In this document: piece by piece, positions 34,101-43,100 of the stretch
Layout: the number at the start of each line of letters is the position of its first letter
How positions within the stretch are numbered: position 1 is the stretch's first letter
Origin: Escherichia coli
GTDB taxonomy: Bacteria > Pseudomonadota > Gammaproteobacteria > Enterobacterales > Enterobacteriaceae
Strand: one strand, 5' to 3'
Assembly: GCF_048403405.1 (NCBI RefSeq)
Contig: NZ_CP183129.1
DNA length: 64,000 nt
Made by a program: the position numbers

Positions 34101-37100
34101 TGAAATTTATCCCTTGTACGGGGCATAGTCGGATCTATTTGCTGCAAATGAAAGATGTGGCATTTGTCAGCAGTCGGATGAGCGGTGTCTACGTTACGAG
34201 TCACGAAGGGAAAGAGGGCTTTACCGAATTGACATTACGTACCCTGGAAAGTCGTACACCACTACTGCGCTGCCATCGTCAGTATCTGGTTAACCTCGCG
34301 CATTTACAGGAGATTCGTCTGGAAGATAACGGCCAGGCCGAGTTGATTTTGCGTAATGGCTTAACCGTGCCGGTCAGCCGCCGTTATCTGAAAAGCTTAA
34401 AAGAGGCGATTGGCCTGTAAAAGGCTGCTAAAATGGCTTTTTGCCTCATCAACACCTGAAGGCCTCATGCTAAGTAACGATATTCTGCGCAGCGTGCGCT
34501 ACATTTTGAAAGCCAATAATAATGACCTGGTGCGTATTCTGGCGCTGGGTAATGTCGAAGCCACCGCGGAACAGATCGCCGTCTGGCTACGTAAAGAAGA
34601 CGAAGAGGGTTTTCAGCGTTGTCCGGACATTGTTTTGTCGTCATTCCTCAATGGCCTGATTTATGAAAAACGCGGCAAGGATGAGTCTGCTCCGGCACTG
34701 GAGCCGGAACGTCGCATTAATAACAACATCGTGCTGAAAAAATTACGCATCGCGTTTTCGCTGAAAACCGATGATATTCTGGCGATCCTCACCGAACAGC
34801 AGTTCCGCGTTTCGATGCCGGAAATTACGGCGATGATGCGTGCACCGGATCATAAAAACTTCCGCGAATGCGGCGATCAATTTTTACGTTATTTTCTGCG
34901 TGGACTGGCAGCGCGCCAGCATGTGAAGAAAAGCTAAGACGGGTATGGCGGCCATGCAAAAACATGGCCGCCGACAGATTATTTCACTTCTTTAAAACCA
35001 GCGGCTTTCATCACCAGTTCCATTTGCGCCATAGTGATACCTTTTTTGGCATCTTCAGCAGAAACGTTGATTCCTGAAATACCCTGCAGGGCTTTGAAAT
35101 CCACTTTTTCCATATCGATAGTCACGTTTTCCTGCGCGTAGGTATCGGTATAGGTTAATTTTTCTTCAACACCCGCGATGTTTTTGTATTTGGCGCTTAA
35201 CGGCTCAAGTGTCTTGGCAGCATCTTCTTTGGTGGTTGCACCAATGGAGGCAAATTGAATTTTGGTTTCAGAAGATTGCTTAAGCACCTTGTCACCTTTG
35301 TAGACATAGGTAATGGCAATTTCAGTACCGTTCAGATTGGCGCTGAATTTTTTCGATTCTTCTTTGTCACCGCAGCCAGCAAGAGAGAAAACCAGAACAG
35401 ATGCAACAACGAGGGAAAACAGCTTATTGAAAGCCTTCATGTAAAACTCCATTTTATTTAATCAAGAAACTGGTGACTCTCACCAGGGGCTATATAGGAT
35501 ATGCCTAATACCGTGGCGTGAGCAGTCCGGAACTGGAGTGGAACTCTTAGTAAAAAGCACTATTTCATCCTTGTTGCTGAAGCATGGGGAATAATTGTTC
35601 GCAAAGCAAAACACCGTTATTCATTGCTTCTACCCGTGCCTCGCTTTCTGTATTACGAAATTGTGCCAACACATGTGCCAGCCGATAAAAACCGACCGCG
35701 GTGAGGTCATTCGCCAGCAACTCTGCCTGACCAATAGCACTCTGTTCCTGATAGCGCCAGCCGTTATGGAGCAGTTGAATAAGTAACGCCTGGCAGCGCA
35801 TCAGCAACTGATGAGCGGTAGACGGCACAGGCAAAACGCTGGCAGAAGGTAGCGGTGCCACAGGCGCAGTTTCTGCGTCCAGCGCCCAGGCGCGGGTTTT
35901 TGTCATCATCACCCGTGGTTCCAGTGTCAATTGCCCCTCTACAAAGCTGACAAAGCCAGAAACCAGACTCACGGGGTCGTCTGTTTGTTGCAAAAGCGCC
36001 GCCATGCGTTCAACGGCATAAGGCGCGCTGGCTGAGGCTGGCAGTGATAACGTCAGCAGATTATCTTCACCTTCGCCGCTGATTACCTGCGCATCCAGCG
36101 TCTGGCGGCTGCTATCCCAACCGAGCGAAATACACTCAGCGACCGGCAGAATAAATAAGTTATCGACCTGATTAAGAGGCCGTATGCAGGCGGGAGGACG
36201 CTGGCGTAAATATTCCCGCAAAGCCACAATGCCCGGCTGGCGCAATGGCGCGCTCAACATTTGCCAGGCATCAGGCGACAGCGGCACAACGCTGCTTAAG
36301 CGGTTGCGGGTAGCTAACAGCAGCTCGCCATCGGCACTGCGTTTTGCTGCTTGTGAAACAATTTGCCCGCCCGCCAGTGCGCCAGCCTGAAAACTAAACA
36401 GCCGACGCGTAGCTGCCGGTGAGTTTTCCTGTTCACTTCGCGGCCAACTGCGCGAAAGGTGCAAAATACTGCCGGTGTCGGGATCGGTAAACCAGATGCG
36501 TAAACCATAATGCTCAATATCCTGCCAGCAACGCATACCTAAAGACACCAGCCGCAGATGATCAAGCTTTGCTTCTCCGGCAATGCCAGCGCCAACGACC
36601 GTGCGCCACGGCACAGGAGGAACTTCACCAACACTGTCGCGCCGGGTCATCTCTTGTGCGCAATTTAATCGACTGTTTAATGCCGCAAGCTGACGTAAGC
36701 ATTCTCCGGCATAATAGTGGCTGGCGCGGGCGTGGAAGGCATCAACGCTGGCGCGCAGTTGCCGTAGCGATTCACTCACCCATCGCCAGTTGCAGCGTTC
36801 CGCCGCCTGCTGCGCGCGGCTGAAAGCGGCCTCGTAGTGAATAAGCGGCTGGCTGATGCCGCTCAGCCATAATGCCTGGCTTAGTTGTTGAACATATTGA
36901 CGACACGTTTTGCCTTCTTCGCTGGCAAACGGATCGTCAGATGATGTGACGTGTTCGCTGCGCATCTGCCAGATTAAATGAGTCAATTCCGCTTGCTGCG
37001 CTTTTGCCTGGACAAAGGCCTGTACTGCCAGTACGACATGTTCGCAAAGTGTGCCTTCAATACAATCACAGCGTGCGAAGCGAATGCTGCTGCGGGAATA

Positions 37101-40100: not shown

Positions 40101-43100
40101 GGTCGAAGCAGGCAACTTGTGCTGGCGCAAACGGGTGAGAACCGTTTTTAGCAGTTGTTCTCCCGCCTGCTGTAAGCCCCACTGCCAGCACCAGTTTTGC
40201 CAGACCGGGGCAGGCATTCCTGAAAGGTATCCTGCCAGCACATCAAGGCGCTTTTCACTGTAGGGGGTGAGATAACAACCTGTAACGGCATCATCCAGTA
40301 AGAGCAATTCTGGCGTGTTAATTACCTGCAGACATTCGCGCCACATTTTTGCCAGTGCCGGAGCGTGCCAGCCACCGCAGACAACTAACACGTCGCCATT
40401 ATTTTGCTGCATCGCCCATCCAATCCAGCGGGCCATAAAGGCTTCGCGCTGACGATTGAGAGCATCTCCGGGGGAGTCGCCCCGCAGTTGGGCAAAATAG
40501 TGCGCAAGTGCAGAGGGTAATGCAGTTTGCTGGCTTTCATCTTCGAACAAGTGATCCCACAGGGTGTCGCTGTTATCCATGCGGGTGGCACGCAGCAGCA
40601 AGGTCTGGCTTTCCTCTTGCGTATCAGGCGAATCGTCCTCTTCTTCACTCTGCGCCCAGCAAGGCAAATCGATGAAGTAAGTTTGTGCCTGAATACGACG
40701 AGCGGCTTGTAGCGCCTGCCACTCCGGCGAAAATTCAGCAAATGGCGTCCAGGCACCACGCCCGGGGGCCGCACCGTCCTGATACTGGCAATAACTGTAA
40801 ATAGCTACCGGAAGCTGGTGAGCTAACAACAGTTCGTCTACCCGGTCATTAAAATCAGCCGGGCCTTCAATCAACACGTATCGTGGCCGCTGGCTTTCGA
40901 TTAACGATTTCACCAGCCGGGCGCAGGCCGGACTATGATGCCGGATGCCGACAATTAACGGCTCGCTCATGCATCTTTCCTCACGGCAGGCGGTGGCGAG
41001 CTTGATAATAAGCCTGCCAGTGAGCTTCTTTATGTGTGGCGACGCGCTGTTCGAAGTAACGGCGCAGACGCGCGCGATCTTCTTCGTTATCTTTGACGAT
41101 GGTTCCGGCAATACAGTCCACCAGGTCGGCAGGCTCCCCCGCGCGATTCGCTAAAAACCAGGCGCGGACACCCACAGCATGGGCCACGTTAACGGCTTCA
41201 GCGGTGGACATAATCGCTGTCAGTGTATCCATTGACGTTTTCTTTTCGCCGTTGGCACGCAGATCGCGGAACGTGCGCACCAGTAATTCCAGTACCGCGT
41301 CAGGCACTTTATGCGGAATACCGCTATGGGCCAGCAAACGCGCCGAAGCACTGGCAACCAGTTCCAGCTCCTGGGCGAAATCCATAATCGGAAAGACAGT
41401 TTCAAAATCGAAGCGACGCTTTAGCGCAGCACTCATTTCATTGACGCCGCGATCGCGGGTATTGGCAGTGGCAATAATATTAAAGCCTTCCCGCGCATAG
41501 AGCTGACTGGCTTCACCAGTGAGTTCCGGCACCGTCATTACCCTGTCAGAAAGCATACCTAACAGACAGTCTTGTACTTCCAGCGGTGTACGCGTTATCT
41601 CTTCAAAACGGACGATTTTGCCGTCGCGCATTCCCTGGTAAAGCGGGGCAGGGACCAGCGCTTCCGTTGATGGACCATGATTGATAAGCAGAGCGTAGTT
41701 CCAGCCGTACTTGATTTGATCTTCGGTGGTAGATGCGCCGCCCTGGATGGTTAACCCGGCATCGCCGCTAATAGCGGTTGCCAGTAATTCAGACAGGAGA
41801 GATTTTGCGGTGCCAGGTTCCCCCACCAACATCAAACCGCGCCCGGTGGCAAGAGTGACTAACATACGTTCGACAGCGGAGGGACTAATCACCACTTTAC
41901 GGCTAATATTTTGCGCGCTATCGCCAAGGATAAAAGCACGGGCCGCAGGCAAACTTAACTGCCAACCGGGCGGGCAAGGTGCGTTATCATTTTGTTTTAA
42001 TTTTGCCAGTTCATCGGCGTATAACACAGCAGCAGGCGGACGCTGCAGATGATTATTCTGCGGTGACATATATTCATCCCTGAAATGTATTAATGAAATA
42101 AACGATATTTTACGCGCAATAAATGTTTGGCGCATTAGTTGTTTGAGCGAAAAATATCTGGAAAGCAGATCACAGTAAATAAAAAAACCTGCTGGTGAGG
42201 CAGGTTCTTTTATTTACTATTTTCAGGCCCAACACCGCAGCCTGTGCAACATCGTGTTCCAACGAACGAATTATAACCATCGGTGGACCCCGTTGCAATT
42301 AAGATAATGAGATTTATAATCCAGACGGTTGGGACGTTGCGCCGGATCGGACCAATTTTAAGTCCTGGCTACCGGACGGGTGGTGCTGCAGGTGGTGCCC
42401 TGATCCGGAGTGCAACATCGTGGTCCAACATACGTAAACCAGTATCGACAGGCAGTGTAAGGGTAAGGTGCTGGTGTTGCGCTCCTTAATAAGGAGAGCG
42501 GATGGACACGCTGACACAAAAGTTAACCGTGCTCATTGCCGTACTGGAGCTATTAGTGGCTCTGTTACGGTTGATTGATTTGTTGAAGTAATGGGCAAAT
42601 TGAAACGCATCTAAGGGGGAATACCGTTTCCCCCTTTAATAAAGCTATTTTTCTATTTCTTGGTTGAATATATTCTGTAGTTCGCGATTAAAAATGGCTA
42701 TTACCGTTTCTGGTGATTCGCCCCGTAATTTTCGCTCATCAATAAACTCATCTCTTATATAAATCAACGCATCATTTATTAGCGGGTCGACATCCTCTCG
42801 ATCACGTTGATGAAATGTTGGATGTAGCCGGAATCGCTCCAGTCGGTAGACGGAACCTGTAAATAATTCAGAGCATTTATGGATCTCAAGTCTGAAGGAA
42901 AACGGATCTTCAGGTACAGGGACCTCATAATCGTAAATAGCAACCAGCTCTTTTTGCACGATCATCGCTTTTCCCGGTGGCAGGTCGTGTTAATAACGGG
43001 CAGTCGCATCACTGCCCGCTGTGTTTTAATGGAAAATGACGTCGGGTGCGCTTAACGCTTCACTCAAATCAAACACATCAAGTTCGGCAAAAGTGACAGA

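Follow-up and report, generated by a model that had tools for sequence, protein, structure and literature searches.

The Escherichia coli yehLMPQ operon is the core of a five-component MoxR-VWA cassette found across bacterial phyla

The yehLMPQ operon lies at positions 35565-42069 of a 64,000-nucleotide stretch of the Escherichia coli chromosome (contig NZ_CP183129.1, assembly GCF_048403405.1; hereafter the window), where it matches the annotated yehL, yehM, yehP and yehQ genes at up to 100% identity. We find that these four genes are the invariant core of a larger cassette, in which giant WGR/DUF4132 proteins are followed by YehL, YehM, YehP and YehQ in this order, and we describe the domain identities and catalytic-type residues of its products, the gene order and junctions that it keeps across phyla, and the variability of its DUF4132 component. 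An earlier reading of the window from its sequence alone (the sequence-only reading) had presented a four-gene module merely located beside WGR/DUF4132 genes; across phyla, those genes prove instead to be a conserved fifth component. The same reading stated that no function had been assigned to the operon, and this stands, as no functional study was found in the literature searched, nor any mention there of DUF5682, the family to which YehM belongs. We tentatively propose, at somewhat below an even chance, that in this cassette an ATP-driven MoxR-VWA switch controls a hydrolase. The molR-yehQ region is among the largest E. coli gene blocks without a known function, with about 18 kb and eight genes including the DUF4132 paralogs.

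Results

A cassette with conserved order and junctions

One genome per species was scanned for YehM relatives, which were present in at least 577 species-level genomes, and 80 loci from Gamma- and Betaproteobacteria, Myxococcota and many Actinomycetota were taken for the locus survey; six-frame open reading frames (ORFs) of the surveyed loci were searched with the E. coli proteins and 83 loci were scored. YehL and YehP homologues are present in 82 of these each and YehQ homologues in 81, while a DUF4132 protein is found in 75, most of the surveyed loci without one being truncated on their upstream side. The DUF4132 family lies immediately upstream of the yehL homologue in 75/83 loci, and about 70 of the 83 follow the co-directional order DUF4132 (one to five copies), yehL, yehM, yehP, yehQ, which remains identical in distant loci at 31-35% identity. 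The junctions are likewise tight, with median spacings of approximately 0 (yehL-yehM), -19 (yehM-yehP) and -7 (yehP-yehQ) nucleotides and a distance from DUF4132 to yehL that is usually below 100 nucleotides. In Variovorax and Serratia a WGR and DUF4132 giant stands directly 5' of the AAA_5-DUF5682-VWA_CoxE-SWIM series, with unrelated flanks on either side. The recurrence of the four genes, their order and their junctions in more than 80 loci from three phyla indicates that the arrangement is no product of chance.

When 2941 flanking ORFs were clustered all against all, no further common family emerged and synteny was confined to the genus level; on this basis additional conserved neighbors were rejected as cassette members. 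The core family itself is broad: an exhaustive search groups DUF5682 into 2261 clusters at 50% identity, and Foldseek comparison against the AlphaFold Database places further YehM relatives in Leptospira, cyanobacteria, Planctomycetes, Chloroflexi and Firmicutes.

Operon layout and occurrence in E. coli

As the sequence-only reading had it, the four genes are co-directional; both the annotation and our own translation place them on the minus strand, followed by a terminator-like element:

yehL, 40981-42069, minus strand: MoxR-type AAA+ ATPase of the YehL subfamily, 362 amino acids
yehM, 38691-40970, minus strand: DUF5682 protein with a three-part architecture, 759 amino acids
yehP, 37562-38698, minus strand: CoxE-type VWA protein with an intact metal ion-dependent adhesion site (MIDAS) and a conserved N-terminal helical region, 378 amino acids
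yehQ, 35565-37565, minus strand: SWIM zinc-finger protein, 666 amino acids
terminator-like hairpin and T-run, 35470-35486, minus strand: 79 nucleotides after the yehQ stop

The hairpin, recognized by a consensus scan and in the sequence itself, is the probable end of the operon. The 10-nucleotide gap between yehL and yehM (TGAggaaagatgcATG) and the 8-nucleotide overlap between yehM and yehP (ATGTCTGA) are as previously read; the yehP-yehQ overlap, given before as 2 nucleotides, is in fact 4 (ATGA), and use of an alternative in-frame yehQ ATG at 37589 would extend it to 28. Each of the four starts is preceded by a GGAG/GAGG-type Shine-Dalgarno sequence, and the tight coupling proposed for the operon is upheld; the junctions of the homologous loci are equally tight. 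The operon is found in 5362 of 5426 complete E. coli genomes and is covered over at least 80% of its length in 5202, with nucleotide identities that are typically 95-99%.

YehL and YehP carry intact ATPase and MIDAS residues

Profile hidden Markov model searches against Pfam were carried out with each of the four proteins and confirmed the two central assignments. YehL carries the Walker A motif GEPGTAKS at residues 83-90 and matches AAA_5 (2.6e-34), as expected of a MoxR-type AAA+ ATPase, and YehP carries the MIDAS-type motif DQSGSM at residues 222-227 and matches VWA_CoxE (6e-71) over model positions 1-222 of 222. YehL gives its name to one of seven MoxR subfamilies (PMC3893208); its closest PDB sequence matches are the AAA modules of midasin (3e-10), and its match to bpMoxR is weak (0.002). 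GEPGTAKS, the Walker-B-like FEEITR (155-160), N203 and the R218/R219 pair are kept in at least 90% of 83 YehL homologues, and D222-x-S224-x-S226 with D307 in at least 90% of 82 YehP homologues. Judged by this conservation of ATPase, arginine-pair and MIDAS residues, both proteins look active. The pairing is constant as well, a YehP homologue being found two genes downstream of yehL in 82/83 loci. Midasin/Rea1 similarly combines AAA_5 modules with a MIDAS domain in remodeling a large assembly; it is, however, a single 5000-residue eukaryotic polypeptide that acts on pre-60S particles, whereas YehL is a single-module protein.

A +1 ribosomal frameshift site has been reported for K-12 yehP at codon 291 (PMC2790909). 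The corresponding cassette in the window (37825-37840, minus strand) reads GTAGAGTATGGTCGGC, with one synonymous change relative to K-12 (GTG to GTA), through which the Shine-Dalgarno-like GGAG stimulator loses a G and is weakened.

YehQ combines SWIM and OB-like modules

Both SWIM-type CxC...CxH fingers ascribed to YehQ are present in the E. coli protein, at C70/C72/C78/H80 and C166/C168/C174/H176 (Pfam SWIM, 1e-3 and 0.21, respectively), but the pair does not extend to the whole family. The first predicted finger is found in 78/78 homologues and the second in 36/78, all of them proteobacterial, so that the double SWIM arrangement is a lineage trait rather than a family one. The SWIM module is N-terminal, and the remainder of the protein consists of helical bundles and two beta-barrel domains that resemble the oligonucleotide/oligosaccharide-binding (OB) folds that bind single-stranded DNA (ssDNA); a search of PDB sequences with a YehQ profile gave no significant match. 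The resemblance to ZSWIM8 is limited to the single module, and the cullin-type partner of the latter is absent from the yeh cassette.

YehM contains a TIKI-like domain with a candidate active site

YehM had been described as a protein without recognizable motifs, a view that its Pfam match to DUF5682 (1.5e-96), the fold of its N-terminal domain and a set of invariant residues overturn. The high-confidence structural model divides it into an N-terminal TIKI/ChaN/TraB-like alpha/beta domain (approximately residues 1-260), a middle domain and a C-terminal HEAT/ARM-like solenoid. The fold matches of the N-terminal domain, with their scores, are as follows, the other YehM matches being HEAT/ARM solenoids:

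ChaN, 2g5g: 10.5
a TraB family protein: 10.0
EreA-like protein, 2rad: 9.3
EreA-like protein, 2qgm: 8.1
HopBA1, 5t09: 9.1

In the model, the domain has the alpha/beta fold with a parallel beta-sheet core seen in ChaN, EreA, HopBA1 and RRSP. The TIKI superfamily, which groups these fold matches, is defined by such a core together with a 2His/2Glu site and a conserved Arg (PMC6254334). In an alignment of 47 YehM members at 30-64% identity, the invariant polar residues are concentrated in the first 200 positions (R10, H11, E35, H51, E83, D101, E143, R175, E176 and G199-G200-x-H202), and G8xxH11, E35, R175 and G199xxH202, all invariant, are placed at the ends of strands or in the helix before them, in an order that matches the TIKI site. 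The second catalytic Glu is ambiguous, with E83, E143 and E176 as candidates. From the modeled fold and these residues, the N-terminal domain is a probable hydrolase, either a peptidase or an esterase. One of the 47 members also gives a weak Pfam match (5.5e-3) to Cofac_haem_bdg, a family of the Tiki superfamily. Compared with Tiki/TRABD2, TraB/PrgY, GumN, ChaN, the erythromycin esterases, RRSP and HopBA1, YehM differs in that its domain is fused to approximately 500 other residues.

Natural YehM-YehP fusions occur (P0175, P0229 and P0266), and in locus L088 the fusion sits inside an otherwise complete cassette; these argue for physical association of the two proteins.

The fused cassette of L088 is directly followed by a second one of a different kind (15598-23468) that encodes a 501-amino-acid protein, a HEAT_2 protein of 580 amino acids, and AAA_5, DUF5682 and VWA_CoxE proteins without DUF4132, which suggests that the AAA_5-DUF5682-VWA_CoxE triad is able to pair with alternative scaffold proteins.

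The WGR/DUF4132 giants are the variable component

Three giant paralogs are present near the operon as previously noted; an N-terminal WGR domain, however, is present only in MolR and YehH and absent from YehI. Coverage is given as the number of the 5426 E. coli genomes in which at least 80% of the gene is found, together with the typical nucleotide identity:

yehI, 43026-46658, minus strand: DUF4132 giant without WGR, 1210 amino acids, a paralog of the fifth component; 5222 genomes, mostly 90-95%
yehH, 46668-50462, minus strand: WGR and DUF4132 giant, 1264 amino acids, the fifth component; 4010 genomes, mostly 90-95%
molR, 50475-54272, minus strand: WGR and DUF4132 giant, 1265 amino acids, the third paralog; 1629 genomes, 80-95%

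YehI and YehH share 38% identity over residues 110-1204, and YehH matches Pfam DUF4132 with 3e-51. The WGR profile finds PDB entry 2ra8 (2e-23) and the WGR domain of PARP3 (7e-4); the likeness to PARP1-3 concerns this individual module only, and the cassette proteins carry no PARP catalytic domain. WGR is present in 57 of 94 complete DUF4132 homologues, and the DUF4132 member that adjoins a YehM homologue in Leptospira carries leucine-rich repeats (LRRs). Within the family the C-terminal half, which includes Pfam DUF4132, is highly conserved, and residues from about 100 to 650 are variable. In E. coli the tandem DUF4132 array appears to recombine and change copy number. A single pairwise comparison of the window with K-12 gave the following ratios of nonsynonymous to synonymous substitution rates (dN/dS):

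metG (control): 0.04
yehL: 0.05
yehP: 0.07
yehM: 0.13
yehQ: 0.14
yehI: 0.18

All genes compared are thus under purifying selection, and the WGR/DUF4132 proteins are the variable, faster-evolving part of the cassette.

Decay in K-12 and loss elsewhere

In K-12 MG1655 (locus L085, 6475-20945) a 3.6-kb molR/yehH deletion has left a yehH pseudogene and yehF, which contains WGR only; yehQ stops at residue 614 rather than 666. IS1 has replaced yehLMPQ in E. coli 20KM2222 (L090) and the whole molR-yehQ block in E. coli FG92-1 (L091), and lineages 2 and 3 of Shigella sonnei are without yehL, yehM and zorO (PMC12795559). Together, the K-12 decay and these losses imply that the cassette is dispensable in the laboratory. 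Phenotyping based on K-12 may not reflect the intact cassette, and the decayed copy could explain why K-12-based work has assigned no function to it.

Discussion

A switch model for the cassette

The cassette could be an ATP-driven switch in which MoxR and VWA proteins gate a hydrolase. In the model that we put forward, YehL would form an AAA+ ring, YehP would dock via its MIDAS onto an acidic residue of a partner, and the two would together remodel a complex whose solenoid scaffolds, two in kind, are the giant DUF4132 proteins and the HEAT-like C terminus of YehM. The output would be the N-terminal TIKI-superfamily domain of YehM as a probable peptidase or esterase, whereas input would come from the WGR/DUF4132 proteins, with their variable copy number and faster evolution, and from the SWIM/OB-like YehQ, acting as sensor or scaffold modules that each probably bind a nucleic-acid or protein cue. 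The architecture of this model is solid; we infer its enzymology and trigger (DNA damage or an invader), as well as physical assembly, hydrolase activity and the direction of information flow. If the model is true, the MoxR-VWA switches gain an effector and a sensor that are both of a new type.

Several observations weigh against it. Two Actinoplanes loci contain yehL, yehM, yehP and yehQ homologues but lack a DUF4132 gene over a distance of about 9 kb, and in E. coli a 576-nucleotide spacer, yehK and a toxin-antitoxin system stand between the DUF4132 genes and yehL, which makes their co-transcription doubtful. With regard to YehM, neither phmmer nor a profile search of PDB sequences returned a match, and its hhalign comparison with a TraB/YbaP alignment was not significant (probability 0.2%), the template being shallow (at least 65% identity). 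On these results a sequence-level tie between YehM and TIKI families or solved structures was rejected, and we accordingly class the protein as TIKI-like in fold, with a plausible active site, and do not count it as a proven member. Furthermore, some TIKI-fold proteins are noncatalytic binders: ChaN binds heme, and PMT lacks the motif (PMC6254334).

Among described systems, the cassette comes closest to the MoxR-vWA ternary conflict systems (VMAP, iSTAND, FtsH and beta-propeller types; Kaur et al. 2020, PMC7159879), in which an AAA+ ATPase of the MoxR clade and a vWA protein of the CoxE type are likewise encoded together with a large third protein that has effector or scaffold domains, and which have a similar phyletic spread in Actinomycetota, Myxococcota, cyanobacteria and some Proteobacteria. 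In that work MoxR-VWA pairs are proposed to act as ATP-dependent thresholding switches for effectors; it makes no mention of SWIM, WGR, YehL or DUF4132. The yeh cassette falls outside these classes because its third component is DUF5682, with a TIKI-like domain and a HEAT solenoid, rather than a VMAP, iSTAND, FtsH or beta-propeller-vWA protein, and, unlike them, it has two further obligatory partners, the SWIM protein and the WGR/DUF4132 giants.

A maturation chaperone as an alternative

CoxD-CoxE-CoxF serves in the maturation of the Cu/Mo cluster of carbon monoxide dehydrogenase, and RavA-ViaA is the other MoxR pair of E. coli. Both encode an AAA_5/MoxR ATPase and a VWA protein in one operon, and the end-to-end fit of YehP to VWA_CoxE raises the question of whether the yeh cassette works in the same manner. 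YehL and YehP would then fold, load with cofactor or assemble a client, which could be the DUF4132 proteins or an unlinked complex, and YehM would be a noncatalytic, ChaN-type scaffold that binds a ligand or metal. We regard this as rather unlikely, even though several observations speak for it: the characterized MoxR systems are maturation factors (PMC3893208, PMC7159879), the top fold match of YehM is a heme binder and not an enzyme, and the operon is near-universal in E. coli, evolves under purifying selection and has housekeeping flanks free of defense islands. Nevertheless, the cassette has no cox, metallo-cluster or other conserved client genes nearby, its YehL belongs to a separate MoxR subfamily, and it comprises five components as opposed to two or three; the invariant paired GxxH, Glu and Arg residues of YehM are more typical of active TIKI enzymes; variable copy number and faster evolution of DUF4132 would be unusual for a fixed client; and the K-12 decay, IS1 replacements and Shigella sonnei losses show that the genes are repeatedly lost without obvious cost.

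Possible roles in immunity and surveillance

The immunity and DNA-damage readings considered below are specific biological interpretations that overlap with the switch model. In the former, directed against phages and other mobile elements, the WGR/DUF4132 paralogs would be diversifying sensors of foreign nucleic acid or protein, upon whose activation the MoxR-VWA pair frees the YehM protease and infection is aborted. The parallel with the ternary conflict systems speaks for it, as do the patchy spread, rich in Actinomycetota, Myxococcota and soil Betaproteobacteria, the expansion and faster evolution of the DUF4132 paralogs, and the precedent of HopBA1 and RRSP, TIKI folds that act as cell-death or signaling proteases. 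The cassette also occurs occasionally on plasmids (about 29 non-Escherichia records), and hns/stpA mutations relieve the repression of yehL and yehM, H-NS being bound in the spacer upstream, a silencing typical of acquired genes (PMC3686432). We nonetheless consider this interpretation unlikely. A search of PADLOC-DB 2.0 with YehL, YehM, YehP, YehQ, YehK and YehI (E <= 0.01) returned 0 families and no NCBIfam match reached its cutoff, so that a defense annotation was rejected; the flanks in E. coli, Variovorax, Serratia and two metagenomic loci, a small sample and not a census, are housekeeping genes without defense neighbors; phage genomes contribute one doubtful record; the genes hold a fixed position in the E. 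coli core, whereas most defense systems are accessory; and selection on all genes in the single pairwise test is purifying, not positive.

The stress, conflict or nucleic-acid surveillance role suggested in the sequence-only reading is speculation, to which the PARP-related WGR domain, the OB-like domains of YehQ, the listing of molR among LexA targets, and the copy number and faster evolution of DUF4132 lend some indirect support. Its most far-reaching form, to which we assign a low probability, would make the cassette an unrecognized and widespread class of MoxR-VWA-gated surveillance or immune systems, where diversifying WGR/DUF4132 giants, in some lineages equipped with LRRs, would detect foreign molecules or the ends of nucleic acids, YehQ would act as a co-sensor, and the ATPase-VWA pair would license the TIKI-family protease of YehM on host or invader targets. 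If true, bacteria would have their own counterpart of regulated protease-based innate immunity, one overlooked in the core genome of E. coli on account of the broken K-12 copy.

A possible machine of the DNA-damage response

Regulation of molR bears on the remaining interpretation. The gene is among the LexA-regulated genes with a known SOS box (PMC6590174), and in the window it is preceded by an element consistent with this listing:

LexA-box-like site AACTGGATAAAATTACAGGG, 54280-54299, minus strand: about 7-8 nucleotides before the molR ATG

The site is of the form CTGG-N8-ACAG, compared with CTGT-N8-ACAG for the LexA box, and none was found near yehL. All loci were scanned near the cassette start for relaxed LexA (CTGT-N8-ACAG) and Cheo (GAAC-N4-GTTC) boxes; the only similar site found elsewhere is that of Klebsiella grimontii (L005, near 1461), the other matches lying inside WGR coding sequence. 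SOS control as a general property of the cassette was rejected, given that no LexA or Cheo boxes stand at the cassette start beyond Escherichia and Klebsiella (about 80 other loci). A machine in which WGR and the OB-like domains of YehQ recognize breaks or ssDNA and the ATPase remodels or clears a nucleoprotein complex within the SOS response is therefore improbable, for although it would draw together the LexA site and listing of molR, the homology of WGR to the PARP domain, the ssDNA-binding folds that the YehQ barrels resemble, and the response of Deinococcus DUF4132 and WGR genes to DdrO depletion, as part of the radiation response, the box is confined to two genera and missing upstream of yehL, and the cassette has no nuclease, helicase or recombinase.

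Returning to the switch model, the present analysis offers new handles on the operon in the form of a five-component unit, a probable hydrolase active site in YehM, the DUF4132 proteins as its variable part and a decayed K-12 copy.

Probable lineage-specific insertions upstream of yehL

The type I toxin-antitoxin system noted next to the operon is indeed present, as an OrzO-P RNA match together with a short zorO ORF, and is accompanied by yehK:

OrzO-P RNA, 42181-42256, minus strand: 101 bits
ZorO-like ORF (MDTLTQKLTVLIAVLELLVALLRLIDLLK), 42502-42591, plus strand: 29 amino acids
yehK, 42645-42965, minus strand: 106 amino acids, 40% GC, between the DUF4132 genes and yehL

The location of the operon beside the toxin-antitoxin system had been taken as a clue to its function, which is not upheld, since the toxin-antitoxin genes and yehK are probably lineage-specific insertions. 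A yehK homologue is found in none of the 83 related loci, and the gene is AT-rich; it was thus rejected as a sixth component and is probably an insertion unrelated to the cassette. The 145-amino-acid gene found at the equivalent position in Variovorax is unrelated to yehK. The complete zorO/orzO-type system (42181-42591) occupies the yehK-yehL spacer, with back-to-back promoter-like sites at 42270-42320, and in K-12 an orphan OrzO-like sequence (99.9 bits) is kept while the 283 nucleotides that carry zorO are missing.

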